From IMG/VR virus record IMGVR_UViG_3300046171_000182, positions 1 through 64,000 of that record: a DNA stretch of 64,000 bases. One strand, written 5' to 3'. The notes beneath the pieces are model-generated. The model saw nothing but the letters and a program-made list of their open reading frames with translations, searched no databases and had not been told where the DNA came from. Source of the DNA: a virus. Shown one piece after another: positions 5,194 to 62,989 of this stretch (position 1 is the first letter of the stretch; every line of letters begins with the position of its first letter). The position numbers and the translations under genes are program-made.

Positions 5194-5207
5194 CCTAGAG
5201 TGTTCAA

Positions 5208-5559: not shown

Positions 5560-5575
5560 CTTTAAGGAATTCCAC

Positions 5576-18986: not shown

Positions 18987-19360
18987 GCTTTACGTTTCTT
19001 TTCTCTTTGAGAGTCGCCCATAGAGACTCTGTAATTATCTTCAACTGAATCTGGTGTAGATACTTCTAATAATGTACCCTCTTCAATACAAATGACTTGG
19101 TGAGGAACTAAAGGTTTGTTTCTGTGAACCCCACCTGCTTCTAATCTTTTACGTTCAACGGATGCATCTACTGTATTGATAACTAGCACATCAAACACGC
19201 CACTCATCACATACCAAGTCTTATCTTTGTCTTTATGAAAGTGCATAGAAAACTTTGCACCTTTATTAAACTGCAAAAACTTTCCACAGTACTTGTCATT
19301 GGTTGCCCAAATAAACTCATGGCCCCAACCTTTTTCTATAAATCCTTCAAGTTGTGTCAT
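18983..19360 (-). CDS. Cupin, sugar-phosphate isomerase-like
   Basis: KGWGHE, FSMHFH, PH, LEVSTPDSVEDNYR. Confidence 0.75.
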   Translation of the reverse strand: MTQLEGFIEKGWGHEFIWATNDKYCGKFLQFNKGAKFSMHFHKDKDKTWYVMSGVFDVLVINTVDASVERKRLEAGGVHRNKPLVPHQVICIEEGTLLEVSTPDSVEDNYRVSMGDSQREKKRKA

Positions 19361-39931: not shown

Positions 39932-40134
39932 TGAAAGAATTTGTATTAGTAATTAGCATGTGGGGTAATAATGGCACCGCATGGGAATATATAGGTAATC
40001 AATATGTGATGAATGAAAAATTTACAGAAGCTCAATGCGAGATTCTAGTAGATAATTCTAATTGGAAAAAGCATATAATAAACGAATACTATAAATTACA
40101 ATTTAATTGTTTTCACGAGGACGACCATAACTAA
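39931..40134 (+). CDS. Hypothetical protein
   Basis: TAATG overlaps at both ends. Confidence 0.55.
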   Translation: MKEFVLVISMWGNNGTAWEYIGNQYVMNEKFTEAQCEILVDNSNWKKHIINEYYKLQFNCFHEDDHN

Positions 40135-47668: not shown

Positions 47669-47874
47669 CAAACTGGCTAAAAAGACTTTTGTATGACAAG
47701 TACGAAGTCACAATATGGTTTACAGAAGATGGCAAGAAAACTAAAAGTTTCTTTGAATTAACTGAACTAAATAAGATTGACCAAACATCTTTGCGCGGTA
47801 GAGATATGGATGGTCGTAAAATTAATATCAAGACTACCGAGAAATTTGATTATCAAGTGAGGAAAATATACTGA
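47665..47874 (+). CDS. Hypothetical protein
   Basis: ATGA/TGATG overlaps with both neighbours. Confidence 0.55.
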   Translation: MTNWLKRLLYDKYEVTIWFTEDGKKTKSFFELTELNKIDQTSLRGRDMDGRKINIKTTEKFDYQVRKIY

Positions 47875-48320
47875 TGAGTGATTGGGCTAATGACATTTAT
47901 ATGATGCATAATAAATTTGGCGTCAAAGAATGGTTCGAAAAAAATAAAGATGATAAAGATCTAATGCAGAAATATATTATGTTTCGTATGCTTATGATCG
48001 GTGAAGAATATCAAGAAACTTTATCTGCTATTAATAACTCTGATGCTGAAGAAGTGGTTGATGGTTTGATTGACATGTGCGTCTTTGCTATCGGTACTCT
48101 TGATGTTATGGGAGTAGATGCTAATAAAGCATGGGACAAAGTCTATGAAGCTAATATGGCTAAACAGCCTGGTGTAAAACCGGGTCGACCTAACCGATTT
48201 GGTCTACCAGATCTGCTAAAGCCTAGTAGATGGCAACCACCTGAGCATAAAGGTAACCACGGCGATTTGAATCTAGCTATAGGCACACCGCCGGTAATCG
48301 CTGTCGATGACGGCTGGTAA
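47874..48320 (+). CDS. MazG-like all-alpha NTP pyrophosphohydrolase
   Basis: EEYQE, EVVDGLID, V..ANMAK, DLLKP..W.PP. Confidence 0.8.
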   Translation: MSDWANDIYMMHNKFGVKEWFEKNKDDKDLMQKYIMFRMLMIGEEYQETLSAINNSDAEEVVDGLIDMCVFAIGTLDVMGVDANKAWDKVYEANMAKQPGVKPGRPNRFGLPDLLKPSRWQPPEHKGNHGDLNLAIGTPPVIAVDDGW

Positions 48321-48324
48321 TACC

Positions 48325-49254
48325 ATGGCGATTTCGCTAACGCTCTTTAAGAGCGTCTTTGATAATAAGACGCATCGTAGAATGGACTTCGAGAACTGGC
48401 AACAGCTCTCGGAGCTCTTCTATAAACTGTCTAAACAACCTTTGAAAGGAAAGAAAGATGCGCAACTTATATCACCAGCTGTATATGTTCCTGATACAAC
48501 TAGGGCCAACAAGAATGTGGATGCTTGGGCAGGTTGGGCTGCTATTGATGTTGACGATCACGCTTTTAAAGGCAAACTAGAAGATGAACTTAATGAGCGC
48601 TTTGGTAATTACACATATGTGTGTTATAGTACCGCTAGTAGCACTCATGAATTTCCAAAGTTTCGTGTGGTTTTCCCACTTAAAAGTTCGGTTGAGCAAG
48701 ATAAGATCAAGCACTTCTGGTATGCGCTCAACTCAGAGCTTGGTAATATGGCAGATAAACAGACTAAAGACTTATCTCGTATGTATTATATTCCTGCAAC
48801 TTACGATAACGCTTATAACTTCATCTTCTCTAATGATAATGGCGAATATGTTGATCCAGCCAAACTCATGGGAAAATATGAGTACGCACAAAAATCAAGC
48901 AAAAACTTTATCGACAGACTCCCTGAAGCTTTACAAAAACAAGTTCTTGAACACAAAAAATCAAAACTAGATAATACAAATATAGTATGGACAAGCTATC
49001 GCGATTGTCCTTTCTGGCCAAAGAAATTGGCTAGCGAATACCAGATTATATCTAATACGGGTTGGTATCATAAAATGTACCAGATAATGGTTGCGGTTGC
49101 GGCAAGAGCTGTTGAACGGCAGTATCCAATCACATCACATGAGATAACTAATCTATGTCGAGAGTTTGATATGGGAACCGGTAACTGGTATGAGAATCGT
49201 CCTATGGACGTAGAAGCAGATAGGGCACTAGAATATGTTTACAAAAATATCTAA
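48325..49254 (+). CDS. PrimPol/AEP-like primase candidate
   Basis: WAAIDVDD, YSTASS, KFRVVFPL, D.QTKDLSRMYYIP; helical C-terminal domain. Confidence 0.65.
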   Translation: MAISLTLFKSVFDNKTHRRMDFENWQQLSELFYKLSKQPLKGKKDAQLISPAVYVPDTTRANKNVDAWAGWAAIDVDDHAFKGKLEDELNERFGNYTYVCYSTASSTHEFPKFRVVFPLKSSVEQDKIKHFWYALNSELGNMADKQTKDLSRMYYIPATYDNAYNFIFSNDNGEYVDPAKLMGKYEYAQKSSKNFIDRLPEALQKQVLEHKKSKLDNTNIVWTSYRDCPFWPKKLASEYQIISNTGWYHKMYQIMVAVAARAVERQYPITSHEITNLCREFDMGTGNWYENRPMDVEADRALEYVYKNI

Positions 49255-49741: not shown

Positions 49742-50086
49742 ATGAAAGAATCACTAAAAGTCCTGCAAGAATGTGCAGAAATTCAAGCAAGAAAATCTAA
49801 CGACTATCAGAACGAAAACTCACGTATTCGTCAAGCTGATTATTATCCACGTGGCGTCATGTCAATTATGGAATTGATTAACACAAAGACTATTCGTCTA
49901 TGGTCTGTACTTGAAGCTATGGAGAATGATCCTAACTATGAGCCTAACTTTGAAGGCGTTGAAGACTCCCTCAAAGATTTAATTAACTATTCTTCGTTTG
50001 CTGTCGCATACGCTCGTGGTAAGATTGACGGTCAAGACCCTAATCGCGATTTCTTAAACAGGACCAGAAAAAATGACAAAGTATGA
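49742..50086 (+). CDS. Nucleotide modification associated domain 1 (DUF1599-like)
   Basis: RKSNDY, K.IRL, VEDSLKDLINY. Confidence 0.75.
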   Translation: MKESLKVLQECAEIQARKSNDYQNENSRIRQADYYPRGVMSIMELINTKTIRLWSVLEAMENDPNYEPNFEGVEDSLKDLINYSSFAVAYARGKIDGQDPNRDFLNRTRKNDKV

Positions 50087-50276
50087 AGAGATAGATTTAT
50101 TAAAAAGAAATATTCATGATTTGCAAAGACAATTGCAGGATGCTTATATTAGAATCAAAGAACTAAATAATGAGATTCCTGATGGAACTGGCCATGGTCC
50201 AGCTATTATAGATGACGGGTGGGCAGACGAAACTGATATTCAAATCATGTCTACTAGTAGAGGACACAACCAATAA
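50073..50276 (+). CDS. Small coiled-coil protein
   Basis: DLQRQLQDAYIRIKEL. Confidence 0.55.
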   Translation: MTKYEEIDLLKRNIHDLQRQLQDAYIRIKELNNEIPDGTGHGPAIIDDGWADETDIQIMSTSRGHNQ

Positions 50277-51058
50277 TGTTAAGAGTTATTGCTGGACCAT
50301 GTCAACACGAATCGCTAGAGCAGTCAATGGAGATTGCCAAGCATTGTAAAGATGTATGCGATAAGTATGATATTGAATACGTCTTTAAAGCTAGTTTTGA
50401 TAAGGCAAATAGAACATCTCTTAATGGTGAACGAGGACTAGGTCTGGTGCCAACAGCATATAGTTTTATAGATATTAAACAAGAGATTCCTGGCTTAAAA
50501 ACATTAACAGATGTTCATAGTGTTGAACAAATCAGAACGATTAGAAATCAGTTTAATTCTTGTATTGATGTATTACAGATACCAGCATTCTTATGTAGAC
50601 AAACTGATATAATTAGAGAAGCTTGTCGTACAGATAAGATAGTTAATATTAAGAAAGGCCAGTTCTTGGCACCTTGGGATGTAGCTGGCATTCTAAGTAA
50701 AACAAAAGATGCTAAAGAAGTCTGGATAACAGAAAGAGGATCGAGTTTTGGTTATAATAATCTTGTTGTTGATTTTAATGGTTTGCAGTACATGCTTGAT
50801 AACTATAGCGTTCCGATTGTATTTGATGCAACACACTCGTGCCAGAAACCTGGTGGAAGCGGTGAAAGTTCAGGTGGCAATCGTGCTTGGGTCCCAGGGC
50901 TTACTCGTGCTGCTTCTGCTATGGGTGTATCTAACTTCTTCTTAGAAGTACATCCAGATCCAGATAACGCACCATCCGATGGACCAAATATGTTAAAACT
51001 AGAAGACTTCGATAGAGTTATAGAAAAAATAGTGGAGTGTAATTATGATCGCGGGTAA
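50276..51058 (+). CDS. kdsA: KDO-8-phosphate synthase
   Basis: IAGPC, FKASFDKANRTS, QIPAFLCRQTD, KKGQF, ERG, DATHS, EVHPDP..A.SDG. Confidence 0.93.
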   Translation: MLRVIAGPCQHESLEQSMEIAKHCKDVCDKYDIEYVFKASFDKANRTSLNGERGLGLVPTAYSFIDIKQEIPGLKTLTDVHSVEQIRTIRNQFNSCIDVLQIPAFLCRQTDIIREACRTDKIVNIKKGQFLAPWDVAGILSKTKDAKEVWITERGSSFGYNNLVVDFNGLQYMLDNYSVPIVFDATHSCQKPGGSGESSGGNRAWVPGLTRAASAMGVSNFFLEVHPDPDNAPSDGPNMLKLEDFDRVIEKIVECNYDRG

Positions 51059-51386
51059 AGTTTGGGGTAATACGGAGCTGATAGAAGCAAACGGCGCTCT
51101 AGAGTTTCATAGAATTGAAATGAATAAAGGCGGTGTTTGTTCTAAGCACCTGCATGAGTTTAAATGGAATGGATTCTATGTTGAGTCTGGTCGTATGCTT
51201 ATTCGCGTATGGCAAAAAGATTATGATTTAGTAGACGAAACAATATTAGACCCAGGTGATTATACTAAAGTTAAACCTGGCGTCTATCATCAATTTGAAT
51301 GTTTAGAATCTGGAGTCGCTTTTGAATTGTATTGGGCAGAATTTAATCATAACGACATTAAGAGAGAAACTGTTGGTCATGCATGA
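51045..51386 (+). CDS. Cupin-domain protein
   Basis: GKVWG, CSKHLH, PGVYHQF, FELYW. Confidence 0.75.
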   Translation: MIAGKVWGNTELIEANGALEFHRIEMNKGGVCSKHLHEFKWNGFYVESGRMLIRVWQKDYDLVDETILDPGDYTKVKPGVYHQFECLESGVAFELYWAEFNHNDIKRETVGHA

Positions 51387-51964
51387 AAGTAAGTGATGCT
51401 GCAACTCACGTAAAATATTATGCTAGTCATCAAATGATGATTACAAAATTGCAAACCTTTAATGATATAACATATACTGCCGGAGCAGAACAAAGTTTAA
51501 GGATATTGCAATTAAATATGGAAAGGCTTAATTGGTTCCTTGGAGATGTAAGAATACCTAAATTTAATTATACTGTCGACTTTGATAAAAATCAAATAAC
51601 TACTTATTCTGAATACATGTTTGGTACTCAAATACACCCAAGAATTGCATATGAAAATAAAGATGTTATTTATGATAGTATGGTAAACAGCGATCAAACA
51701 TGGTTTTATCAAGAAGGAATAAATACGAAACTAGTCGATTGGCCTCTGCACAAACGTTCTATGTTAATGAGAACTAAAAAAAGTAAAAATTATGGTTTTA
51801 AAGATTACTCATTAGAAAATTTTATTATAAGAGGAACTAAACCATTAGGAAAAGATGAACCACCTTGGAATATTGCATATGTAGATTTAGAAGCTTTTTG
51901 TGAATGTACAAATGATGATCGCAAAAAAGCATTTAAATTTTATGAAGGGGCTATAATTTTATGA
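51383..51964 (+). CDS. Protein-kinase-like fold protein (putative small-molecule kinase)
   Basis: RIP, YSEY, FKDYSLENFI (DxxxxN), YVDLE. Confidence 0.45.
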   Translation: MKVSDAATHVKYYASHQMMITKLQTFNDITYTAGAEQSLRILQLNMERLNWFLGDVRIPKFNYTVDFDKNQITTYSEYMFGTQIHPRIAYENKDVIYDSMVNSDQTWFYQEGINTKLVDWPLHKRSMLMRTKKSKNYGFKDYSLENFIIRGTKPLGKDEPPWNIAYVDLEAFCECTNDDRKKAFKFYEGAIIL

Positions 51965-51976
51965 AGGGGGCTATAA
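51938..51976 (+). repeat. Tandem duplication TTTTATGAAGGGG(G)CTATAA x2
   Basis: Directly visible; includes the RBS of the next gene. Confidence 0.85.
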
Positions 51977-51977
51977 C

Positions 51978-52400
51978 ATGAAAGTAGGATTTACAGCTTC
52001 AACTTTTGATTTACTTCATGCAGGACATGTGGCAATGTTGCGTGAGGCAAAATCAGTTTGTGATTATTTAATTTGTGGTTTGCAGGTAGATCCTACATTG
52101 GATAGACCTAGAAAGAATCGACCTGTTCAATCAATTGTAGAACGACAAGCACAATTAGCCGCAATAAAATATGTCGATGAAGTAATTATTTATTGTACAG
52201 AAGAAGAATTATGTGATATAATAAACATGTATCCAATTGACGTAAGGATATTGGGTGAAGAGTATAGAGACAAAGATTTTACTGGTAAGGATGAATGTCG
52301 CAAACGTGGCATTCAACTTTACTTTAATAAACGAGACCATAGGTTCTCGACGTCTGATTTAAGGAAAAGAGTACAGTATGCAAATGACAGCAGTCCGTGA
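51978..52400 (+). CDS. TagD-like cytidylyltransferase
   Basis: STFDLLHAGH, ER..QL.AIKYVDE, RDHRFSTS.LR. Confidence 0.88.
   Translation: MKVGFTASTFDLLHAGHVAMLREAKSVCDYLICGLQVDPTLDRPRKNRPVQSIVERQAQLAAIKYVDEVIIYCTEEELCDIINMYPIDVRILGEEYRDKDFTGKDECRKRGIQLYFNKRDHRFSTSDLRKRVQYANDSSP
52194..52222 (+). promoter_or_regulatory. Gene-internal promoter TGTACA-N17-TATAAT upstream of the gp42-like gene
   Basis: Exact motif and spacing. Confidence 0.65.
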
Positions 52401-53061
52401 TATTCGTCAATATTTTATTGATGAACTAAAAGACGAAGCTTTTACAATTGATAAGACCGGCGCTAAGACAATAGAAATGCTTGGCGCATCTTTCATTGCT
52501 GATGAGGCAGCCATATTTGGAACAGTTAGTTATGATTATGTTCAAGAAGAATTAGACTGGTATGATAGCCAGTCTACAAACATTAACGACATTCGTGATA
52601 ATCCACCAAAAGCCTGGGAGTATGCTGCAAATACTCATGGTGAAATTAATTCTAATTACGGACATCTTATTTTTTCAGACAAATATTATAACCAATATGG
52701 CTGCGTGCTGGATGAATTACTAGAAAATCCTGACGGTCGACGTGCTTCCATGATTTACAATAGACCGTCTATTTGGATGGAGTATAATGAAAATGGAAAA
52801 TCGGATTTTATTTGTACTAACAGCGTCACTTACTATATTCGTGATAGTATTCTACATTCTGTAGTTCAGATGCGTTCTAATGATGTGGTGTTTGGATATA
52901 AGAATGATTACGCGTGGCAACGTGAGGTAATGAAAAGATTAGTCAGAGATTATAATGCTCTAAGTACTTACGATACAGGTAATATAATTGAAGAAGGTCA
53001 CATTACTTGGCAAGTACAAAACTTGCACGTCTATGAAAAGCACTTTAACCTTGTCAAGTAA
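52378..53061 (+). CDS. gp42: dCMP hydroxymethylase (T4 gp42-type, thymidylate synthase fold)
   Basis: INSNYG, SDFICTN, MRSNDVVFGYKNDYAWQ with the Asp that specifies dCMP, LHVYEKHF. Confidence 0.85.
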   Translation: MQMTAVRDIRQYFIDELKDEAFTIDKTGAKTIEMLGASFIADEAAIFGTVSYDYVQEELDWYDSQSTNINDIRDNPPKAWEYAANTHGEINSNYGHLIFSDKYYNQYGCVLDELLENPDGRRASMIYNRPSIWMEYNENGKSDFICTNSVTYYIRDSILHSVVQMRSNDVVFGYKNDYAWQREVMKRLVRDYNALSTYDTGNIIEEGHITWQVQNLHVYEKHFNLVK

Positions 53062-53506
53062 GTGGGATCACCGCTATTTAGAGTTAGCGCGCGCGGTTGG
53101 TACCTGGTCTAAGGATCCTTCCACAAGAATAGGAGCTATTGCTGTTGGAATTAAAGGACAGGTATTGGCTCAGGGATATAACGGATTGCCTAGAGGAGTT
53201 TCTGATTCTGATGAAAGATACCAGGATCGAGAGACTAAATACAAATACATTGTTCATGCAGAACAAAATTTAATTTATAATGCAACATGGAATGGTGTCT
53301 CCTTAGATCAATCTACTTTATATGTGACTGGGCTTCCTGTTTGTTCTGAGTGTGCTAAAGGCGTTATTCAAGTTGGAATAAAGAGAGTAGTTATGCCAGC
53401 TAGTGAAGACATAAGGGGATGGGGTGATAAGGCACGTTGGAACGATTCGTGGGAATTGTCTGCTTCTATGTTTAAGGAAGCCAACGTGTTATACGAGTTT
53501 ATATAA
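53051..53506 (+). CDS. cd: dCMP deaminase
   Basis: WSKDPST, GYNG.PRG, HAEQN, PVCSECAK; start codon uncertain. Confidence 0.9.
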   Translation: MSSKWDHRYLELARAVGTWSKDPSTRIGAIAVGIKGQVLAQGYNGLPRGVSDSDERYQDRETKYKYIVHAEQNLIYNATWNGVSLDQSTLYVTGLPVCSECAKGVIQVGIKRVVMPASEDIRGWGDKARWNDSWELSASMFKEANVLYEFI

Positions 53507-54084
53507 TGGATATGGGATTCAACTCGAGTGTGGAGTTTGTCAAGCTACCAGTAGGATTTAACTTTTGGACTTTTGATAATATACTGTCAGGAGATTTGCC
53601 AAATCAGTTACTGGAAGACAGCAATCAATTCAACTTTTTTAAATTAGATCAGCGCAGGACATCAAGACCTGACCGTATCTATATGCATGAGTATAATATC
53701 GATAGTTTTAAAACTATCGTGGATTTATTAACCAGTAATGGCACCAAAAAGTATTTTAGTGATATTACAGGTATTGATTACACTCGACAACAGGCTAGAA
53801 TTGAACTATGCAAAGACGCAACTGGAAGTTGGTTAGAGCAACATTGCGATGATCCAGCAAAAACTATGACTTGCCAGATATATCTGAGCAACGCCCCTTC
53901 AAGCACAAAAATTGGAACCTTTGGAAGCAAAGCAAAATTTAATTGTGGTTGGGTCTTTTCCAATACTGGGACTGAACCGCATGGATTACCTCCATTGACA
54001 TTTGATAGAACCAGTATTATCTTAAATTATGTAAGTGAAAACTGGCGTGATAGAGAAGTTTTAATATGAGTTTATATAATGGAT
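53495..54084 (+). repeat. 17-bp direct repeat GAGTTTATATAATGGAT (53495-53511 and 54068-54084) flanking the oxygenase gene
   Basis: Exact match visible; extends to 21 bp with one mismatch. Confidence 0.9.
53506..54069 (+). CDS. 2OG-Fe(II) oxygenase
   Basis: WLEQHCD (HxD), QIYL, PHG, RTSIILNY. Confidence 0.8.
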   Translation: MDMGFNSSVEFVKLPVGFNFWTFDNILSGDLPNQLLEDSNQFNFFKLDQRRTSRPDRIYMHEYNIDSFKTIVDLLTSNGTKKYFSDITGIDYTRQQARIELCKDATGSWLEQHCDDPAKTMTCQIYLSNAPSSTKIGTFGSKAKFNCGWVFSNTGTEPHGLPPLTFDRTSIILNYVSENWRDREVLI

Positions 54085-54174
54085 GATGAAGTATTATTGC
54101 TACTAGCTTTGATGACAGTTATCTTTGGCGGTACGTTAATTATTAATTGGATATTTTGGGGAATAGCCGGATGA
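54079..54174 (+). CDS. 31-aa membrane peptide, not in ORF track
   Basis: MDDEVLLLLALMTVIFGGTLIINWIFWGIAG; ATGA overlap with the next gene. Confidence 0.5.
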   Translation: MDDEVLLLLALMTVIFGGTLIINWIFWGIAG

Positions 54175-55127
54175 ACGTAATTACAAATCCTATATCAAAT
54201 ATTCCGAAGAATGAGAAGTCGCACGTTCATGGTTGGTCGCAGTTGTGGCGTGATCAACTTGGTGCCTTTATTGATCACAAATGTACTCCACGAATAACAA
54301 AAGCAGATGTTGTTTATATAGATCATGGTGCTAACTTTGGCGGTAGTTTAAATTTATTTGGCGGAGCTAATAAAGAAGTTTATGATAGAATCAATCTTGT
54401 AATGTCATGCGAAAACATTGTCTCGTTAGATTGGGATATGCCTGATTATGGGGCAATGTTAAAGAAAAGACTTTCAGCTGAGACAACCTATAAAGATATT
54501 ACAGAAAAGTGGTGTGATTCTATTTCTAAACGAATTAAAAGTATTACGTCTCTTAAGCAGAAAGATTTAAAAACAGATGGTGTTATTTTTGGAGACTCAC
54601 ATACTATCGCTTTTAGTGATGCAGGGGATCGCGTGTATAGGACTGACGGTAAGACTCTTTTTGGTAGTATACGTAAGGGACTTCGACAAGACATACAAGA
54701 ACCATTGGGCCGACTTACCATATCTCTTGGCTCTATTGACATTAGGCATCACATTCTGCGTCACCCTGGCTTTTCTCTTAAATATAACATCAAAGAATAT
54801 GTAAGAGAAGGTAATCAGATGGCTGACGATGTATGGTTTGCTGCTCCGGTTCCTGTAGAGTTTGAAGGAAGACGTATACCTAAATCAGGATTCTACAAGA
54901 AGACTCCATTCTATGGCTCATGGAAAGAGCGTTGGGATCTTACAAACGAATTTATTGAAATGCTTTACGAAGAATCTAAAGGTAAAGTTGTTATGCCGCC
55001 AAAAGAATGGTATACAATGGATCCTGAAAAATACGCAAATACTTATATGGAACACGGTTCTAGTTTTCATATAGCGCCACCATATTATAGACGCAACGAT
55101 TGGGGAGTATCACCTCTTGGCACATAA
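54171..55127 (+). CDS. Two-domain protein: N-terminal region resembling the T4 beta-glucosyltransferase acceptor domain plus C-terminal SGNH-like domain
   Basis: SLNLFGG and SLDWDMP resemble BGT SINFFGG and YLFTDIR (from memory); IFGDSH, GSID, SSFH match SGNH blocks. Confidence 0.5.
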   Translation: MNVITNPISNIPKNEKSHVHGWSQLWRDQLGAFIDHKCTPRITKADVVYIDHGANFGGSLNLFGGANKEVYDRINLVMSCENIVSLDWDMPDYGAMLKKRLSAETTYKDITEKWCDSISKRIKSITSLKQKDLKTDGVIFGDSHTIAFSDAGDRVYRTDGKTLFGSIRKGLRQDIQEPLGRLTISLGSIDIRHHILRHPGFSLKYNIKEYVREGNQMADDVWFAAPVPVEFEGRRIPKSGFYKKTPFYGSWKERWDLTNEFIEMLYEESKGKVVMPPKEWYTMDPEKYANTYMEHGSSFHIAPPYYRRNDWGVSPLGT

Positions 55128-56001
55128 CAATCATGTCATAGACGGAATCAATAAAGATATTAATCCATTTTATGGAGATCCAAAAGAGTATTATTTAGAA
55201 CTAGCAAAAGATTGGGAGGATCCATATGGAATACCTAATATTACTGAGCATAGCGGGATTCGTGTTGTTCGCGACGATTCTCTTGTTGGTAGTAAGGTTA
55301 GGGGCGGCGATTGCCTCATTAGTAGTTTGGGCTCTCACATTGACACTATCGTTTATGTTCAACCTCGCACTGGTCTTGCCGGTGTTAGTATACTTGACGT
55401 CGCCAAACGACATGGAAAAGATGTCATGCTCTTCATGCCCTCAAGTAAACGCATCAGCGATCACCAAGCCTGCTGTATTGAACGGGGAGCACGTACTAGT
55501 TTTCATAGAATAGCAGCTATGCCTAATTTAAATCTAATTGCAAAGAAATGGGCAGATGAAAGAAAGAATGCTTTCTTTGTACCGTTAGGCTTAAAACATG
55601 AAATGGTAACAGCAGGCATTGTAAAGGCTGCTTCTAAGATAAGAGAACCTGAAGAAGTATACACTGCCACGTCCACGGGCGTGCTCACACGGGGGCTGCA
55701 GATTGCTTGGCCTAATGCCAAGTTTACTTCCGTCTGCGTGTCTCGTAATATGAAAGCTGGTGAATTAGGTATTGCAGAAGCCGTATCAGAGCCATTGGCG
55801 TTTACGGCTTCAGAGAAAAAAGACAATCTTCCGCCATTCCCGACTATAGATACCTACGATGGTAAGGTATGGAAATATATTCCAAAGAATACAGGACGTG
55901 ATATTTTATTCTGGAACGTAGGCAAAGAACCGATATTGCAAAATTCAGGTTTACCGGATACCATAGATTCATATAGAGATTGGGAAAAGAATGTGGCTTA
56001 A
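55117..56001 (+). CDS. Fold-type II PLP-dependent enzyme
   Basis: VVRDD..VGSKVR (PLP Lys), STGVLTRGL, YDGKVW, LFWNVG. Confidence 0.8.
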   Translation: MAHNNHVIDGINKDINPFYGDPKEYYLELAKDWEDPYGIPNITEHSGIRVVRDDSLVGSKVRGGDCLISSLGSHIDTIVYVQPRTGLAGVSILDVAKRHGKDVMLFMPSSKRISDHQACCIERGARTSFHRIAAMPNLNLIAKKWADERKNAFFVPLGLKHEMVTAGIVKAASKIREPEEVYTATSTGVLTRGLQIAWPNAKFTSVCVSRNMKAGELGIAEAVSEPLAFTASEKKDNLPPFPTIDTYDGKVWKYIPKNTGRDILFWNVGKEPILQNSGLPDTIDSYRDWEKNVA

Positions 56002-57007
56002 CGAAGAAGCAATTGATGTTCTCGTAAATTATTATTATCCGAAGGCCGGATGGTTGCAAGACAATGTAAACTGGGGACCTTTAGATTATGAAGGTCCTGA
56101 AGCAAATGAAATTGTTAATGATCCGCTTCTGCAAAAGATTGACATCTATGATTGTAAAACAAGAAACGCTGCAGGCTTCTCAAACGTATTACAAGATCTG
56201 AGGTTCGGATCTAAAACTCCTAAATGGAGATGGCAGAAAGAAGATAGACGTAAGATCTCAGCATCTAATGATAATATTAGTTGGTCAATTGAAACGTGGC
56301 TATACACATTTCTCTGTCATCGAATTACTGGGTCAGGTGCTTCATTTGAAAACGATCATGGTTATCGTAATAATATAATTCAGCATTGGGGTAAGCACAG
56401 AGACATTAAAGATATGGCAGAGGATTTGGTAGAGACTAAAGCCTCTGGAAAACCAATGTTTACATCTATCGGCAATCAACCTCCGGCTCCTAAGAAAGGA
56501 GTTAGTAATGTTGACTTTATGGTAAATGAATTGCCAGAAGTTATCAATAGATTTACAGATTTTCTTCTCTTAAAAAGAAGAGGCCACAAAGAAATTGTAG
56601 ATCATCTAAATGAACATAATAAAAAAGCAGGTCATCGTAAATTTAATTTTCAGTATGCTGCTTTCTCTATGGATTGCTCTGACTATTTTCCTGAACACGC
56701 TGATGTGGATTCTCATACATATTTAGGAAACAACGCAGTACGATGTATGAAAAAATTATCTAAAGGTTGGAAAGATGACGACTTTATGGATCTACTAAGA
56801 GAAAAAACTGGCGGTAAACCAAAAGACCTCGAAGATGTTATGTGTGATTTTGTTCGGTTTGGACAGAATTATGTGCCACGAGGTAATGGAACATTCGATC
56901 ATATTCCTTCAACATTAGCTAATGCATCTGGATGGGAATCTGGATGGGAACAAAGACAAGGCCATCCGCCTATAAAAGGTTTACAATTAGATGAATTTAT
57001 GGTATAA
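55991..57007 (+). CDS. Amino acid:DNA transferase-like protein (aGPT-pyrophosphorylase / HhH glycosylase-like family)
   Basis: HRITGS, MFTS, FQYAAF.MD, GNNAVRCM, LEDVMCDFVRF resemble the F..YQ..D / GPGA / E..LCE..K motifs; adjacent PLP enzyme. Confidence 0.6.
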   Translation: MWLNEEAIDVLVNYYYPKAGWLQDNVNWGPLDYEGPEANEIVNDPLLQKIDIYDCKTRNAAGFSNVLQDLRFGSKTPKWRWQKEDRRKISASNDNISWSIETWLYTFLCHRITGSGASFENDHGYRNNIIQHWGKHRDIKDMAEDLVETKASGKPMFTSIGNQPPAPKKGVSNVDFMVNELPEVINRFTDFLLLKRRGHKEIVDHLNEHNKKAGHRKFNFQYAAFSMDCSDYFPEHADVDSHTYLGNNAVRCMKKLSKGWKDDDFMDLLREKTGGKPKDLEDVMCDFVRFGQNYVPRGNGTFDHIPSTLANASGWESGWEQRQGHPPIKGLQLDEFMV

Positions 57008-57008
57008 T
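56980..57008 (+). promoter_or_regulatory. Promoter TTTACA-N17-TATAAT; transcript would be nearly leaderless (ATG at 57014)
   Basis: Exact motif 5 nt before the start codon; no SD. Confidence 0.7.
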
Positions 57009-57013
57009 AACAT

Positions 57014-57865
57014 ATGTTAAAAATTACAATTATAGGCCACGGTTTTGTTGGTAAAGCAATCGACTACGCATTTCAAGATGATGTAGAAAAACAAATTATA
57101 GATCCTAAGTATGACGTTCATTTACACGATGTAAGATTATCTTCTGATGTAACGTTTGTTTGCGTTCCAACGCCAATGCATAAAGATGGCCAATGCGATG
57201 TAAGTATTCTTCGAGATGTTTTACATAAAATTGCTCAACGAAGAAGTGGACTCATAGTTGTCAAATCTACAGTACCGCCTGATCAAATAGAAAATTTATT
57301 TCGTGGTTCTGCTAAACATAGAATGGTTTATAATCCAGAATTCTTGACAGAAAAAAATGCAAATGAAGATATTATAAATCCGTTCGTACATATTTTTGGT
57401 GGCGAGAACGAGGCTACTAAAAAGCTGGAAAGTTTTTATAAAGAATATAGTATATGTAAGCCATGTCCAATATCACATATGTCAGCAACAGATGCTAGCT
57501 TTGTAAAGTATGGAATCAATACTTTCCTAGCAACTAAGCTAACATTCTTTAATGAACTTTATGATACAATAAAAGACTTTGGAGGTAATTATGGTCGTAT
57601 CGCAAACGCAATTGGTACTGATCCAAGAATTGGGCACTCCCATACTCGTGTCCCTGGTTTTGACGGCAAGCGTGGTTTTGGCGGTGCTTGTTTTCCAAAA
57701 GATGTTTCCGCCTTCGTAAACTTTACAACTCATACTCCTTTACTAGAATATGTTATGAATCGTAACAATCAATATCGATCCGAGTATGAAAAAGACGAAA
57801 GAGAAATAGCACAGAACATAGAGTATAATATGACTGGTGAAATAGCACACGTGAATGAACGATGA
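57014..57865 (+). CDS. UDP-glucose/GDP-mannose dehydrogenase family (short form)
   Basis: IIGHGFVG, CVPTP, KSTVPP, NPEFL, KY..NTFLA.K, GFGGACFPKD. Confidence 0.9.
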   Translation: MLKITIIGHGFVGKAIDYAFQDDVEKQIIDPKYDVHLHDVRLSSDVTFVCVPTPMHKDGQCDVSILRDVLHKIAQRRSGLIVVKSTVPPDQIENLFRGSAKHRMVYNPEFLTEKNANEDIINPFVHIFGGENEATKKLESFYKEYSICKPCPISHMSATDASFVKYGINTFLATKLTFFNELYDTIKDFGGNYGRIANAIGTDPRIGHSHTRVPGFDGKRGFGGACFPKDVSAFVNFTTHTPLLEYVMNRNNQYRSEYEKDEREIAQNIEYNMTGEIAHVNER

Positions 57866-58794
57866 AAATATTCATAACAGGAATATCAGGGTTTATCGGA
57901 TTCCATTTAGCTAGAGAGCTTAAAGCTTACGGCCATGATATCTTGGGTTGTGATAATTACAACGGCATGTATAATCCATCTCTAAAAATATCTCGATACA
58001 GGATTCTAGAGATGTCAGAGATTCCTGTTAAAAATGCTGATATATGCTCGTTGACTCAATCAGAGGTTGAAGACTGCGATGTTATTGTACACTTAGCGGC
58101 GTGGGCTGGTGTTAGACATTCATTGGAAATGCAAAATGTTTATACAAAAAATAATATAATTGGTACACAAAACATTATAGATATTGCTGAGACGCTAAAC
58201 ATTCCTGTGGTTTATGCTTCTTCATCAAGTGTGTACGCTGGTCAAAATCCACCATTCATGGAAGATATGAATTTTACACATCATCTAAATCCTTATGCTT
58301 GGAGTAAATATGTTAATGAATGTCAATTCAAACACAGTAATGTACCTTCGTCAATCGGCTTTAGATTTTTTACAGTGTATGGTCCTTATGGACGGCCTGA
58401 CATGGCACTTCATGGATTTACGAACAAGATTATAAAAGATGAACCAATAGAAGTTTTTGGTCACGGTGATATGTCACGTGATTTTACATATGTACAAGAC
58501 ATCGTAAATGGTGTACAATTGTTAATAGATAAAGTTTCTAAAATAGATGATCATCAAATCTATAATATTGGTAGTGGCGAATCAGTTCCGCTTATGAGTT
58601 TTGTAAGACTCATAGAAGAAAATCTAGATCGCAAAGCAAAGATTAATTATGTTGATATACATCCAGCGGATATTCGACATACTTTAGCTGATATAACAGA
58701 AATAAAAAGATTAGGCTATCGGCCGATGACTTCTATAGAAACCGGTATTCGCAGCTTTATCAGTTGGTATAAAGATTATTATAAAAAAAATTAG
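57862..58794 (+). CDS. NAD-dependent nucleotide-sugar epimerase (UDP-glucuronate 4-epimerase-like)
   Basis: TGISGFIG, HLAAWAGVRHS, ASSSSVY, YAWSK, RFFTVYGPYGRPDMA. Confidence 0.9.
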   Translation: MKIFITGISGFIGFHLARELKAYGHDILGCDNYNGMYNPSLKISRYRILEMSEIPVKNADICSLTQSEVEDCDVIVHLAAWAGVRHSLEMQNVYTKNNIIGTQNIIDIAETLNIPVVYASSSSVYAGQNPPFMEDMNFTHHLNPYAWSKYVNECQFKHSNVPSSIGFRFFTVYGPYGRPDMALHGFTNKIIKDEPIEVFGHGDMSRDFTYVQDIVNGVQLLIDKVSKIDDHQIYNIGSGESVPLMSFVRLIEENLDRKAKINYVDIHPADIRHTLADITEIKRLGYRPMTSIETGIRSFISWYKDYYKKN

Positions 58795-58803
58795 GAGACG
58801 CAT

Positions 58804-59850
58804 ATGTCAGTAATGGACAAACTCAAAAAGAACTCTAAGTTAAAAAACACGGAGGTTCTTTCTGAGTCAAAATTCTTTAATGAAAAAGATATGACTCCGA
58901 CCGATTCGCCAATGATTAACGTGGCGTTATCGGGATCGGTAGATGGAGGTTTAGCCTCTGGCCTTACTGTTCTTGCAGGCCCGTCAAAACATTTTAAGAC
59001 TTCCTTTGCTTTGATTATGGCTGCAGCCTATTTGAAAAAGCATAAAGACGCTGTTATGCTATTTTATGATTCAGAGTTTGGCTCTCCTCAGGCATACTTC
59101 GAGCAATTTGAAGTTGATACTTCTCGAGTTCTTCATACACCAATTACAAATGTAGAAGAACTAAAATTTGATATGATTGGTCAATTGGAAGCGTTAGACC
59201 GAGGTGATAAAGTAATTGTTGTTATTGATTCTATCGGTAACCTTGCTTCAAAGAAAGAGATGGAAGACGCTCTAAATGAAAAATCAGTTGCTGATATGTC
59301 AAGAGCGAAGGCACTAAAAGGTCTATTCCGTATGGCAACACCTTATCTTGCCATGAAGAATATTCCTATGCTAGCAGTCAATCACACATATCAAGAGATC
59401 GGTTTGTTCCCTAAAGCTATCGTCTCTGGCGGTACTGGCATTTATTATTCAGCTGATAATATCTGGATCCTTGGTCGCCAGCAGGATAAGAAAGGTACAG
59501 AGATCCAAGGGTATCATTTTGTAATCAATGTAGAGAAATCACGTTATGTTAAAGAAAAGTCTAAGATTCCTATTACTGTTTCCTGGGACGGTGGTGTTCG
59601 CGGTTACTCTGGGCTTCTTGACGTGGCTCTTGCTGGTGGGTACGTCACTAAGCCTTCAAATGGCTGGTATGCAACGGTTGATATGGAAAGTGGTGAAGTT
59701 GGCCCAAAGGTGCGGCATGATACAACTTTAGAAAAAGAGTTTTGGGATCCTATTTTTGCTGAGACTAATTTTAAAGAGTTTATTAAAAAACAATATACGA
59801 TTGGGCACAGAGAACAAGTATCTATGGATGAGATTGTAGAGGAAGCATGA
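58804..59850 (+). CDS. uvsX: RecA-like recombinase UvsX
   Basis: AGPSKHFKT, YDSEFG, DSIGNLAS, DMSRAK, SGGTG. Confidence 0.96.
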   Translation: MSVMDKLKKNSKLKNTEVLSESKFFNEKDMTPTDSPMINVALSGSVDGGLASGLTVLAGPSKHFKTSFALIMAAAYLKKHKDAVMLFYDSEFGSPQAYFEQFEVDTSRVLHTPITNVEELKFDMIGQLEALDRGDKVIVVIDSIGNLASKKEMEDALNEKSVADMSRAKALKGLFRMATPYLAMKNIPMLAVNHTYQEIGLFPKAIVSGGTGIYYSADNIWILGRQQDKKGTEIQGYHFVINVEKSRYVKEKSKIPITVSWDGGVRGYSGLLDVALAGGYVTKPSNGWYATVDMESGEVGPKVRHDTTLEKEFWDPIFAETNFKEFIKKQYTIGHREQVSMDEIVEEA

Positions 59851-60152
59851 TAGATGTAAATAAACTTTCTGAGGGTATTGACTATAAGTTAATACCTGCT
59901 CCGGATAACGAACAAGCTTGGAACATAAGGGTCTTAACTGGTCCTTATATTGAGACAGTTGTACAGTTTGGCGCCATTTCTATTAATGGTCCAGAAGAAG
60001 CAATTAATTTTAATTTTACTATTATTGAAAGTCCTGATGATTTATTAACGGTTGAAGATAAGCACTTTCAAGAGTTTTGTGGATTAGTCTTACATGATGT
60101 CATTGAAATGGCTATAAGTAAAGACGAATTAATCATGAAAGATAAAAAATGA
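59847..60152 (+). CDS. Hypothetical protein in the gp40 position
   Basis: Between uvsX and gp41, as for T4 gp40. Confidence 0.5.
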   Translation: MIDVNKLSEGIDYKLIPAPDNEQAWNIRVLTGPYIETVVQFGAISINGPEEAINFNFTIIESPDDLLTVEDKHFQEFCGLVLHDVIEMAISKDELIMKDKK

Positions 60153-60571
60153 GAATATTAATTATGGGTTTGCCTGGATCTGGTAAAACTCATTTAGCTG
60201 TAAGATTACAGGGCCTTTTAAAAAATTGTGCATGGTACAATGCTGATGCTATTCGTAAGATGGCTGACGATTGGGACTTTACCGAATCAGGTAGACATAG
60301 ACAAGCAGAACGAATGAATACACTAGCCAACTTTGAAGGTGTTCGAGGTCGTACAGTCATATGTGACTTTGTATGTCCAACAATTGAAACTAGAAAATTG
60401 TTTGATCATGATATTATGATTTGGATGAATACTATAGAGCAAGGCAGATTTAAAGACACAAATAAGCTGTTTCAAAATCCTGATAATGCTACATATACGG
60501 TTAAGGGATTTCAGTCAGACGAAGAAATACAAAATTTTGCAATACAATTAGGGAGTGCATATGGCATTTGA
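60149..60571 (+). CDS. Adenylylsulfate-kinase-like P-loop kinase
   Basis: MGLPGSGKT, NADAIR, DWDFT..GR.RQ, FVCP. Confidence 0.8.
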   Translation: MRILIMGLPGSGKTHLAVRLQGLLKNCAWYNADAIRKMADDWDFTESGRHRQAERMNTLANFEGVRGRTVICDFVCPTIETRKLFDHDIMIWMNTIEQGRFKDTNKLFQNPDNATYTVKGFQSDEEIQNFAIQLGSAYGI

Positions 60572-60975
60572 TTGGAAAAAACCAACGGCGCAAATGCTGG
60601 GGCGATGGCAACCATGGCATAAAGGCCATACCACATTATTCAAGAAAGCATTAGAACAAACTGGCCAAGTTGCTATTATGGTTCGTGATGTTGGTGGAAT
60701 TATTGGTCAAGATGCTGGCGGTGGTCGTACCGCAAAGCAAGATGATAACCCATTTGATTTTAATTTTGTTTCTGCACAAATTATTCTTAATTTGCAAAAT
60801 GAAGGATTTACAATAAACGATGAGTATGTTATAATGGAAGGTACCAAACATTGTTGACATTAGTTATGGTCGTGGTGTTGGGTATACATTTACAGAGCAC
60901 GATCTTGGAGAAGAGATTCATAAGATTAGTGCTACCAATATCCGTAAAAACATGCGAGAAAGTGGAATGCTTTGA
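60561..60975 (+). CDS. HxGH nucleotidyltransferase; apparent extra G at 60840-60841
   Basis: GRWQPWHKGH, DNPF; continues in a shifted frame as VPNIVDISYGRGVGY...ISATNIR. Confidence 0.75.
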
Positions 60976-62339
60976 ACACAAACATTGAACAGACTATATT
61001 GCGAAACCTTCTGGTGGATGATAAATTCATGCGGAAGGTTTTGCCTTTTATAAAGAATGAATATTTTGAAGGTGTCTATCGCCAACTGTTTAAACAAGTC
61101 GGACTATATGTTCAGAAATATAATAAACTACCAACACAAGAATCTTTTAAAATTGAATTAGATGATGCTGATAATTTTAACGATGAGCAATATCGCCATG
61201 CCGTAGAAATCCTACCTGAGATATTTAAGACAGAAGAAATTGATAATGAATGGCTGATTGACAAGACTGAGAAGTGGTGTCAAGATAGAGCATTACATAA
61301 TGCTGTAATGGAATCTATCAGTATTATAGATGGTAAACATCAAAGTCTTTCAAAGAATGCGTTACCAGAGATCCTCTCTGATGCTCTGGCAGTCAACTTT
61401 GACGCAAATATCGGTCATGACTATCTTGGTAACTTTAATGCTCGATATGAGTTTTATCATAAAGAGGAAGAACGTGTAGCATTTGATTTAGAATATTTTA
61501 ATAAAATTACAAAAGGCGGTTTGCCAAATAAGACTTTAAACATTTGCCTTGCCGGTACGGGTGTCGGTAAATCGTTGTTTATGTGTCACCAAGCTTCGGC
61601 TGCTCTTACAGATCAAAAGAATGTTCTTTACATTACAATGGAAATGGCAGAAGAACGTATCGCAGAGCGTATTGATGCCAACCTTCTTAATATTCCAATC
61701 GATCAACTAGATAAACTTTCAAGAGATATGTTCTCGCAGAAAGTATCTCAGCTTGCTAAACAAACAAACGGTCGATTAATTGTAAAAGAATATCCTACTG
61801 GCTCTGCACACTCTGGTCACTTCCGTGCATTACTTAACGAACTAAAACTAAAAAAGAAATTTGTGCCAGATATTATCTTCATTGATTATCTTAATATCTG
61901 TGCATCTTCACGTATGAAAGCAATGGGAGGATCAATCAATTCCTATACGTACATTAAAGCAATTGCTGAAGAGCTACGTGGTCTTGCGGTCGAGTTTGAC
62001 GTACCGGTCGTCTCTGCAACGCAAACGACTCGTAGTGGTTATTCTAACTCAGATATTGGGCTTGAAGATACGTCCGAGTCTTTTGGATTACCCGCAACCG
62101 CCGACTTAATGTTTGCACTTATCTCTTCTGAAGAGCTTGAGAAAGAAGGCAAGATTATGGTCAAGCAATTAAAGAATAGATATAACGATCCAACTTATAA
62201 AAAGAAATTTGTAGTAGGCGTCGATAGATCTAAGATGAGATTGTACGACGTTGATGAAACTAGTCAGACTCTTAGTGATGATACTCCGGTCTTTGATCGG
62301 GCAGAAATGAACAAGCGATTTGAGGACTTTAAACTTTGA
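60972..62339 (+). CDS. gp41: Replicative helicase gp41
   Basis: LAGTGVGKSL, ITMEMAEE, KEYPT, DYLNI, SESFGLPATAD, KQLKNRY. Confidence 0.96.
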   Translation: MNTNIEQTILRNLLVDDKFMRKVLPFIKNEYFEGVYRQLFKQVGLYVQKYNKLPTQESFKIELDDADNFNDEQYRHAVEILPEIFKTEEIDNEWLIDKTEKWCQDRALHNAVMESISIIDGKHQSLSKNALPEILSDALAVNFDANIGHDYLGNFNARYEFYHKEEERVAFDLEYFNKITKGGLPNKTLNICLAGTGVGKSLFMCHQASAALTDQKNVLYITMEMAEERIAERIDANLLNIPIDQLDKLSRDMFSQKVSQLAKQTNGRLIVKEYPTGSAHSGHFRALLNELKLKKKFVPDIIFIDYLNICASSRMKAMGGSINSYTYIKAIAEELRGLAVEFDVPVVSATQTTRSGYSNSDIGLEDTSESFGLPATADLMFALISSEELEKEGKIMVKQLKNRYNDPTYKKKFVVGVDRSKMRLYDVDETSQTLSDDTPVFDRAEMNKRFEDFKL

Positions 62340-62989
62340 AGGTAAGATTAATTGGTTACACTCAACCACCAGAAGATATCGTCGGTCTCGACGATCTACA
62401 AGACATCGTCGCGTATTGTGCCCGTGTCTCCAACCCATCCAACCAAATCAACTCAGAGACATCGGGAAAACTCCTCGACTACCTCATCAAGCACAAACAC
62501 TGGTCACCGTTCGAAATGTGCTCGGCCACGCTCGAAGTCGAAACGACAAGAGATATTGCGAGACAGTTCCTCAGGCACAGGTCGTTTTCCTTTCAAGAGT
62601 TTAGCCAGCGTTATGCTGATATTCGTTCTTTTAATAATTCTTTTGTGATACGTGAGGCAAGACTTCAAGACGAAAAGAATCGGCAAAATAGCGTAGCTAA
62701 TACAGATAAGAAGCTTTCTATGGAATGGGACGCTAAACAAAATAAAGTAATAAAAGAAGCTAAAGCTGCTTATAATTGGGCAATAGAAAATGGAATCGCA
62801 AAAGAACAAGCAAGAGCAGTGTTGCCAGAAGGTAACACCGTTAGTAAGCTCTATGTTAATGGCACCATTCGTAGCTGGATACATTATATCGAGCTCCGTT
62901 CTGCAAATGGGACACAACTTGAACATATGGAATTGGCAAGAGAAGTCGGACAAACAATAGCAAAGATTTTTCCATATTTTGCAGAGTGA
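62336..62989 (+). CDS. thyX: Flavin-dependent thymidylate synthase
   Basis: HWSPFE, RHRSFSFQEFSQRY, ARAVLP, TQLEH. Confidence 0.95.
   Translation: MKVRLIGYTQPPEDIVGLDDLQDIVAYCARVSNPSNQINSETSGKLLDYLIKHKHWSPFEMCSATLEVETTRDIARQFLRHRSFSFQEFSQRYADIRSFNNSFVIREARLQDEKNRQNSVANTDKKLSMEWDAKQNKVIKEAKAAYNWAIENGIAKEQARAVLPEGNTVSKLYVNGTIRSWIHYIELRSANGTQLEHMELAREVGQTIAKIFPYFAE

Follow-up and report, generated by a model that had tools for sequence, protein, structure and literature searches.

A four-gene cassette in a marine T4-like phage

The DNA analyzed here (the window) comprises the first 64 kb of the 135,206-base IMG/VR virus record IMGVR_UViG_3300046171_000182, whose completeness is estimated at 77%. 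It comes from an uncultured marine phage of the T4-like type (G+C 33-41%); among cultured phages, C48C1 (Kyanoviridae) is most closely related to it, its UvsX being 75.9% identical. Between positions 52378 and 57007, we describe four plus-strand genes that encode a gp42-type deoxycytidine monophosphate (dCMP) hydroxymethylase, a two-domain SGNH protein, a pyridoxal phosphate (PLP)-dependent enzyme, and a transferase-like protein of 338 amino acids, and that together form a candidate cassette for cytosine hypermodification. Neither a megablast search with positions 52000 to 57100 nor a tblastn search with the 338-amino-acid protein returned a match among 50,697 phage records.

The 227-amino-acid product of positions 52378-53061 has the thymidylate synthase (TS) fold, with expect values (E) of 4.7e-14 to PF00303 and 1.1e-46 to phrog_160, and it matches the T4 dCMP hydroxymethylase chains 1b49 and 1b5d over 222 residues (5-226; E 6e-72). 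It carries MRSNDVVFGYKNDYAW and the motif FICTN, in which the catalytic Cys146 (numbering of Escherichia coli ThyA) aligns with FMCTN of T4. In the same numbering, its signature reads D143/C146/D169/D177. According to a 2026 study (PMC13326640), N177D is diagnostic of dCMP use and L143D/E of a hydroxymethyl rather than a methyl product, while D169N marks the 5-hydroxy-dCMP synthases of RB69-type phages. Given D143, C146, D169, and D177, the gp42 homolog is of the T4 hydroxymethylase type and not of the RB69 type, and the prediction that it makes 5-hydroxymethyl-dCMP is well supported by homology. The aspartate of dCMP-specific enzymes that the initial annotation had seen in this protein is thus present as D177, with D143 and D169 kept beside it. 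These residues are also conserved among 54 close gp42 homologs from related loci: Asp143 is found in all 54, the RSND motif that holds Asp169 in 53, and ND[YF]AW in 48, the homologs outside these counts being those that gave no match to the regular expression used.

The PLP-dependent enzyme (55117-56001, plus strand) matches phrog_7093 with an E of 3.8e-34 over profile positions 15-279 of 279, the same family that M6 gp52 matches with an E of 3.6e-159. In an alignment of 11 sequences, Lys60 (within GSKVRG) is invariant (11/11) and aligns with Lys36 of M6 gp52, and the C-terminal motif PFP..YD.K.W...FWN.G is likewise invariant. In the report on M6 (PMC8989533), Lys36 of gp52 is named as the likely aldimine lysine, and gp52 is described as decarboxylating C-alpha-glycinylthymidine in DNA experimentally. 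Homology shows this predicted PLP enzyme to be in the family of DNA-base amino-acid decarboxylases, and the earlier description of it as a fold-II PLP enzyme holds at the level of the M6 gp52 family. Its homologs form 1559 clusters at 90% identity; among the 120 close homologs listed, 11 have a precomputed PF00291 match, and a phmmer search with the enzyme against the PDB returned nothing.

Homologs of the PLP enzyme are also encoded by Erythrobacter phage vB_EliS_R6L (7001-7675; phrog_7093, E 1.6e-38) and Microcystis phage Mae-JY30 (6986-7696; E 4.1e-55), where they are either located inside genes for a "DNA modification methylase" or annotated with that name; the one in Mae-JY30 comes after two ParB/sulfiredoxin genes. 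The phrog_7093 PLP family may serve other DNA-modification systems too.

Since homologs begin at residue 9 of the open reading frame (ORF) 54147-55127, position 54171 is the likely start of the gene for the SGNH protein (54171-55127, plus strand; phrog_13881, E 5.7e-91). Its AlphaFold2 (AF2) model, with a predicted local distance difference test score (pLDDT) of 87.9, consists of an alpha/beta N-terminal domain (residues ~1-130) and a C-terminal SGNH/GDSL-fold domain (residues ~133-313). VIA-align placed 54 chains at Z>=8, with 3p94 at the top (Z 11.8, root mean square deviation [rmsd] 3.4 over 160 aligned residues, model residues 127-310) and dozens of GDSL esterases and O-acetyltransferases after it; Foldseek returned 3mil (E 2.5e-4). 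Three elements are invariant across 21 of 21 sequences of the family, which reach down to 25% identity and include fused forms: GDSH (Ser143), His300, and G.ID.RHH; SGNH blocks I and V were assigned by position in the fold rather than by residue-level superposition. In the initial annotation, this protein was called BGT-like/SGNH. The second half of that label stands for the C-terminal domain, whereas the first found no support, with no glycosyltransferase match in Pfam, NCBIfam, or PHROG. The fold-match lists are filled by the SGNH domain, and the N-terminal domain (1-130) was thus barely probed for a GT-B fold; an atlas search with residues 1-132 gave no usable match. Homologs of the SGNH protein form 318 clusters at 90% identity.

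Relatives of the SGNH protein also occur in cultured phages. T4-like phages of Aeromonas, among them 44RR2.8t, 31, and 25, encode a 795-amino-acid protein whose N-terminal third belongs to the SGNH-protein family, as well as a gp42 homolog (47% identity); in Aeromonas phage 44RR2.8t, the gene for the 795-amino-acid protein (5995-8382) adjoins a sodium:solute symporter gene (4402-5925). We considered this protein (ORF233c) as a fusion of the SGNH and transferase-like proteins and rejected it, as hhalign did not detectably place its C-terminal part in the 338-amino-acid family; that part has only a sub-threshold PF18723 match (E 0.0036, 17.2 bits versus a cut-off of 25). The Aeromonas T4-like phages are a possible cultured handle on the chemistry of hydroxymethylcytosine (hmC) and SGNH proteins.

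Relatives of the 338-amino-acid protein (55991-57007, plus strand) number 302 at E<=0.001 in a search of clusters at 90% identity and 140 in one of representatives at 50% identity. The protein owes its assignment to the fold of its AF2 model (pLDDT 84.1), which is that of helix-hairpin-helix (HhH) DNA glycosylases. In BFVD, the model matches amino acid:DNA transferase-domain proteins (E 7.9e-13, TM 0.81/0.71, and E 1.7e-3) and, in addition, Pplase1 and 5-hydroxymethyldeoxyuridine (5-hmdU) DNA kinase helical-domain proteins, including those of SP10, phiRSL1, and PhiW-14. Foldseek against the PDB returned only weak matches to the glycosylases AGOG, AlkA, and Mag1. VIA-align against 48,161 chains ranked 8z2m (PaMx11 gp46) first (rmsd 3.9, 206 aligned, 7% identity) at a Z of 9.3, which is under the tool's safe level for helical folds, and 12 of the next 13 chains were HhH-type DNA glycosylases or queuine-salvage DUF2419 chains. 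Clusters neighboring the protein in the ESM atlas carry PF18723 in 10-36% of their members. Family profiles searched against the PDB gave a chance-level match to UDP-galactopyranose mutase (narrow profile, E 1.3) or nothing (wide profile). Because a fold match is joined by a marginal sequence-level link, the protein is filed as a divergent relative in the aGPT-Pplase/HhH fold superfamily, outside Pfam ADDT. Its earlier naming as an aGPT-Pplase-like transferase is therefore upheld by the fold (8z2m as the top match, and BFVD), and not by membership in Pfam ADDT or HMUDK_hel. Near-invariant positions of the family are H110, R111, G114, S115, D228, E281, C285, and D286. In PaMx11 gp46 (PUGT), Asp175 and Cys247 are reported to contact the target nucleoside (PMC11472151); we do not equate these two with residues of the 338-amino-acid protein.

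Conservation and genomic context of the cassette

Co-occurrence across gene neighborhoods, suggested as a check alongside the initial annotation, was assessed in the best 80 of 160 confirmed viral-contig loci that encode a relative of the 338-amino-acid protein. The gp42, SGNH, PLP, and 338-amino-acid genes are found all together in 52 of these 80 loci, in one of two orders, namely gp42-[cd]-SGNH-PLP-338 (order 1, n = 31, where cd is the dCMP deaminase gene) or gp42-338-PLP-SGNH (order 2, n = 21). The other 28 loci are truncated at the very point at which the missing genes would be expected, and absence was demonstrable in none. The closest cultured relative, C48C1, is without gp42 and all three partner genes, and its gene order is primase-epimerase-UDP-glucose dehydrogenase (UGDH)-UvsX. 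A 187-amino-acid ORF of the window that the initial annotation had not mentioned, and that is placed after the dCMP deaminase gene and before the SGNH gene (53506-54069, plus strand), is genome-specific: it has no Pfam, PHROG, or NCBIfam match and no homolog in the 80 related loci, and a contig from one run joins 53397 to 54060, skipping it. This ORF does not belong to the conserved cassette and gives the impression of having been inserted recently.

A profile search also uncovered fusion proteins of 639-790 amino acids that hold the SGNH part and the 338-amino-acid part in one chain. In 72 loci fetched with two of these proteins (the fusion clade), the PLP gene follows the fusion gene in 71 and a TS homolog is present in 63. 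The D143/C146/D169/D177 signature is found in 62 of the 63 TS homologs, the other one being an alignment gap, and none of the 72 loci gave a UvsX or DnaB match.

The cassette is thus tied to a cytosine-type hydroxymethylase in either gene order, in fused form, and on different phage backbones, and the linkage of its genes is far beyond chance. The initial annotation had proposed that amino-acid chemistry is coupled here to cytosine, and the proposal is supported by the recurrence of the set beside a hydroxymethylase of the cytosine type in two clades that diverged deeply. The position of the cassette is also that of a known modification gene. The T4 order is 43 - imm - 42 - beta-gt - segA - uvsX - 40 - 41, and that of the window is 43 ... 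42 - cd - SGNH - PLP - 338 - (UGDH, epimerase) - uvsX ... helicase; placed between gene 42 and uvsX, the cassette occupies the beta-gt slot of T4. The cassette is widely distributed in seawater: at least half of the sampled words of 52378-57007 occur in each of 16 runs from seawater or marine metagenomes, and the listed runs come from 12 studies.

Genes of nucleotide supply lie in and around the cassette. The dCMP deaminase (52988-53506, plus strand) is T4 cd-like (PF00383, E 5.3e-18; phrog_174, E 1.3e-40), and ThyX, a flavin-dependent TS, is encoded separately (62336-62989, plus strand; PF02511, E 2.6e-44); both had been recognized in the initial annotation. Upstream, a MazG/PRA-PH-type nucleoside triphosphate pyrophosphohydrolase (47874-48320, plus strand; PF01503, E 5.9e-10; phrog_671, E 8.7e-22) has a homolog in 37 of the 56 related loci that hold gp42, and we infer that it is a candidate accessory enzyme depleting deoxycytidine triphosphate (dCTP). 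Co-occurrence of PRA-PH with TS homologs on cytosine-modified contigs is described in PMC8670742. A small protein (49742-50086, plus strand; phrog_18404, E 6.7e-12, positions 171-248 of 264; no Pfam match) has a homolog in 34 of the 49 loci with more than 500 nucleotides upstream of gp42, and directly upstream of it in 21 of the 49.

The products of 47874-48320 and 49742-50086 match phrog_18404 (264 positions) at N-terminal positions 55-139 and at the C-terminal positions given above, respectively; as both match one PHROG, other phages appear, in some cases, to encode the two as one protein. In 62 fusion-clade loci, the gene immediately before the fusion gene encodes an 88-amino-acid protein, and in 54, a 100-amino-acid protein with weak MazG-related PDB matches (E 0.01-0.03) is encoded after the TS homolog. 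These small neighbor proteins have no BLASTP similarity to the products of 49742-50086 or 47874-48320.

The initial annotation had recognized no 5-hmdU DNA kinase in the window, and this extends to the rest of the 135-kb record, in which no PF18748-type or HMUDK PHROG match was found. A PF18723 search of the genome also returned nothing, and no kinase family is among the 14 commonest neighbor clusters of the fusion clade. A P-loop ORF (60149-60571, APS-kinase/AAA_18-like) was considered as the missing DNA kinase and rejected: it has no PF18748 match at E<=0.01 and, like the HxGH nucleotidyltransferase-like ORF that follows (60555-60857), it is found only in the subset of relatives that bear sugar genes. 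A supposed second amino acid:DNA transferase (AADT) at 39449-39796 (PF18724, 11 bits) proved spurious, lying within the gp44 clamp loader.

The genes around the cassette were described in the initial annotation as an overlapping run, from 52378 to 57007, behind its own promoter at 52194. They are indeed tightly packed and run in one direction, but the run is longer, beginning at 47874 or further upstream and reaching 62989 on the other side. The promoter claim did not survive: the site (TGTACA-17-TATAAT) does match the consensus, yet it lies within the preceding gene, and promoter-like matches in the region number 57 versus 44.8 +/- 7.3 in shuffles, so that a count near the shuffled level and the location of the site provide no evidence of a separate promoter.

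Further genes of the run include a primase-like gene (48307-49254; PHROG-level scan), an ORF without an assigned family (51383-51964), UvsX (58804-59850), and a DnaB-type helicase (60972-62339), which is named from synteny with the annotated C48C1 helicase. Sugar-nucleotide genes are found around the cassette (50276-52400, 57014-58794, and 60149-60857), together with a glutaredoxin-phosphomannomutase fusion at 40134-41174. Those in the first two intervals are KdsA (50276-51058; NF003543, E 2e-98) and, from a Pfam scan, a WbuC-like cupin (51045-51386), a cytidylyltransferase-like gene of the RfaE-domain-II/TagD-like type (51978-52400), a UGDH-like gene (57014-57865), and an epimerase (57862-58794). 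The sugar genes vary among relatives, whereas the four-gene set is constant.

Two ORFs far from the cassette recall other modification pathways. A 300-amino-acid ORF on the minus strand (18084-18986) holds the N-terminal carbamoyltransferase domain only (PF02543, E 1.1e-20), without the C-terminal domain, and adjoins a cupin (18983-19360, minus strand) and a bilin-reductase-like ORF (17424-18104, plus strand); the full-length carbamoyltransferase is the enzyme known from PMC8670742 to carbamoylate 5-hydroxymethylcytosine (5hmC) in other uncultured phages. A radical SAM ORF is located at 108728-109540 (plus strand) of the record, outside the window (PF04055, E 1.2e-13); the thymidine pathway of M6 uses a radical SAM isomerase.

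Proposed pathway and alternative explanations

We put at roughly 60% the probability that the cassette carries out a post-replicative, amino-acid-derived hypermodification of 5hmC in the phage's own DNA, which would then probably hold a decorated cytosine without prior chemical description. In the pathway that we propose, the gp42-type enzyme would make 5-hydroxymethyl-dCMP for incorporation during replication, while the MazG-type pyrophosphohydrolase may lower dCTP, and the dCMP deaminase and ThyX would keep the supply of thymidine monophosphate normal. After replication, the 338-amino-acid protein would bind DNA and flip out 5hmC, as related amino acid:DNA transferases do with modified thymine, and would act with the SGNH protein as a unit on the 5-CH2OH; that the two work together is suggested by their fusion in a distant clade. 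The Ser-His enzyme of the SGNH type would either perform a direct group transfer or activate the 5-CH2-OH, for instance by turning it into an ester leaving group; since no DNA kinase is present, this enzyme most likely supplies the kinase step of the thymidine pathways. This specific role is less certain than hypermodification of hmC as a whole. The PLP enzyme, a relative of M6 gp52 and ViI gp226, would then, judging from its family, take the carboxylate off the attached amino acid, acting at its free alpha-amine, so that C5 of cytosine would be left with a side chain that bears an amine. The PLP enzyme being the only tailoring enzyme, the simplest model is an amino acid linked through its side chain, as in ViI, in which serine is O-linked and then decarboxylated. 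Such a modification would shield the phage DNA from host nucleases. We propose only tentatively the more specific version in which an SGNH acyl-enzyme (Ser-His) and a base-flipping protein replace the DNA kinase and provide a phosphate-free route to a positively charged, amino-acid-derived cytosine (e.g., aminoalkyl- or aminoalkoxy-methyl).

Several observations weigh against hypermodification of 5hmC by the cassette. The 338-amino-acid protein has no match in Pfam, PHROG, or NCBIfam, with none to PF18724 or PF18723 at E<=10; one of 66 diverse family members matches ADDT (E 1e-3) and one HMUDK_hel (E 0.01), and hhalign of the family against M6 gp51 and gp54 gave nonsignificant probabilities of 0.2-6%. 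To these we add the level of its Z to 8z2m. The fold-II-type PLP enzyme reaches Pfam PALP with an E of 0.009 and 15.8 bits, below the cut-off of 35, compared with 39.3 bits (E 6.3e-10) for M6 gp52. In SGNH proteins, block III has a GxND asparagine and block V a DxxH aspartate; the SGNH protein is without both, having GSIDIRHH for the former and SSFH (SxH for DxxH) for the latter, and it has no Pfam match. PHROG scans of the record, at its 77% completeness, recognized no gp1-type deoxynucleoside monophosphate kinase and no gp56-type dCTPase, and full replacement of cytosine is thus not demonstrated. Contigs of relatives cover the cassette partly and patchily in four runs, of which three are from RNA libraries or guessed to be so and one is from DNA; those from RNA libraries are at 90-99% likeness, and since DNA carry-over is possible, they are no proof of transcription.

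Other explanations of the same genes were weighed. The SGNH fold is common to the O-acetyltransferases OatA and PatB (Z 10.0-10.2), and the Aeromonas T4-like phages, which have a gp42 homolog and the SGNH-family N-terminal region, gave no PLP homolog by tblastn, so that the PLP enzyme is not a constant companion of the SGNH part. The pair of SGNH and glycosylase-fold proteins might accordingly install a group other than an amino acid on 5hmC, such as an acyl ester, with the PLP enzyme making or trimming the donor. We regard this as rather unlikely, since every marine locus that is not end-cut has the PLP gene together with the pair, as do all fusion-clade loci but one, and since the characterized members of the PLP family act on DNA-bound amino acids (PMC8989533). 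That the best structural matches are DNA-binding, base-flipping enzymes, and that related PLP enzymes and transferases work on polymeric DNA in the systems of PMC8989533, also makes it unlikely that the three proteins act before incorporation on free nucleotides or nucleosides (hm-dCMP, hm-dCTP), or on another small molecule, instead of DNA; such a role would agree with the resemblance of the 338-amino-acid protein to queuine-salvage DUF2419 (Z 8.3), which acts on a free nucleoside, and with the report that the 5hmC carbamoyltransferase accepts 5hmdCTP too (PMC8670742).

A thymine-type substrate, for which the dCMP deaminase would convert hm-dCMP to hm-dUMP and the cassette would hypermodify 5-hmdU, would place this phage with all characterized relatives of the PLP enzyme and transferase, which use 5-hmdU derivatives (PMC8989533). 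The deaminase gene does sit between the gp42 and SGNH genes in 29 of 31 order-1 loci; however, it does so in none of the 21 order-2 loci, in all of which it is outside the cassette, and it was detected in only 4 of the 72 fusion-clade loci. No 5-hmdU DNA kinase was found, and the 338-amino-acid protein represents a separate, divergent family. Moreover, T4 has both gene 42 and cd without making hydroxymethyluracil, and we consider a thymine substrate quite improbable. We give very little credence to the view that the linkage is no more than synteny, arising within an island that is hypervariable among marine T4-like phages, with the three genes serving auxiliary metabolism such as that of sugars or the envelope. 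Although sugar-nucleotide genes (KdsA, cupin, cytidylyltransferase-like, UGDH, and epimerase) flank the cassette, they vary where the four-gene set does not, UGDH and the epimerase are present in C48C1, which has no cassette, and the set recurs, rearranged or fused, beside a cytosine-type hydroxymethylase in loci without a UvsX or DnaB match.

To our knowledge, every amino-acid-type DNA hypermodification characterized so far is found on thymine and begins with the action of a DNA kinase. If true, a version that targets cytosine and needs no kinase would bring a natural base and an activation chemistry that are both new, and the phosphate-free SGNH route, if true, would be the first case of SGNH-type chemistry at a DNA nucleobase, and one widespread among phages, both marine T4-like and other. 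Given how common the cassette is at sea, the modification could matter for the sequencing and cutting of marine viromes and for what is concluded from them, and the enzymes could become tools for 5hmC tagging.

Comparison with known DNA modification systems

Known cytosine decorations include glucosyl-hmC and arabinosyl- or glycosyl-5-hydroxycytosine (PMC13326640) and 5-carbamoyloxymethylcytosine (PMC8670742). Our literature searches that joined hydroxymethylcytosine with SGNH in bacteriophage, or 5-hmdU DNA kinase with dCMP hydroxymethylase, found no paper, and among papers on aGPT-Pplase and hydroxymethylcytosine, judged by title and the start of the abstract, none appears to describe the cassette. 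In PMC8989533, cytosine terms occur in the reference list only.

Among the cytosine systems, the cassette is like T4 gene 42 with the alpha- and beta-glucosyltransferases, which produce glucosyl-hmC, in having a gp42 ortholog and in using the same slot between gene 42 and uvsX; unlike in T4, no glucosyltransferase was found in the window, and three unrelated enzymes are encoded instead. The glycosylation of 5-hydroxycytosine in RB69 and DLP3 also starts with a gp42-like TS homolog in T4-like phages, but, as described in PMC13326640, the enzymes of those phages carry D169N and make 5-hydroxy-dCMP, while that of the window and 53 of its 54 close homologs keep Asp169. The 5hmC carbamoyltransferase uncovered by MetaGPA, which yields 5cmdC, is another decoration of cytosine after hydroxymethylation in uncultured phages, with a TS homolog, PRA-PH, and dCMP deaminase linked to it. 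As presented in PMC8670742, that system relies on a single TobZ-like carbamoyltransferase, without SGNH, PLP, or glycosylase-fold proteins, and the supplement of that study gives PALP and SGNH as not enriched on modified contigs.

The remaining comparisons are with thymidine systems. PUGT, the 5-PmdU glycinyltransferase of PaMx11 (gp46, 8z2m), shares with the 338-amino-acid protein a glycosylase-like fold of two helical bundles and flips its target base, according to PMC11472151; it differs in its substrate, a phosphorylated 5-hmdU in the same report, and the 338-amino-acid family has no profile-level similarity to AADTs and 7% identity to PUGT. M6 encodes in gp51-gp54 a glycine:DNA transferase, the PLP decarboxylase gp52, a radical SAM isomerase, and a 5-hmdU DNA kinase (5-HMUDK), which we located on its unannotated record by PF18724 (gp51, E 1.4e-46), PALP (gp52), radical SAM (gp53), and PF18748 plus PF18723 (gp54). 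The PLP enzyme of the window has phrog_7093, the PLP lysine, and the C-terminal motif in common with gp52, whereas the cassette is without the PF18724, PF18748, and PF18723 families and without a radical SAM gene.

The pathway of ViI, which produces 5-(2-aminoethoxy)methyl-deoxyuridine, is described in PMC8989533 as comprising the 5-HMUDK gp67/gp243, the serine:DNA transferase gp247, and the PLP decarboxylase gp226. Unlike ViI, the cassette is directed at cytosine and not uracil, has no P-loop DNA kinase and no Pfam ADDT member, and has an obligate SGNH partner. Like ViI, it combines a TS homolog that would make a hydroxymethylpyrimidine at the nucleotide level with a glycosylase-fold protein of the transferase type and a fold-II-type PLP enzyme that are encoded together. 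Since the cassette, again like ViI, has no radical SAM isomerase or flavin enzyme, the ViI route is the nearest precedent for the pathway proposed here.

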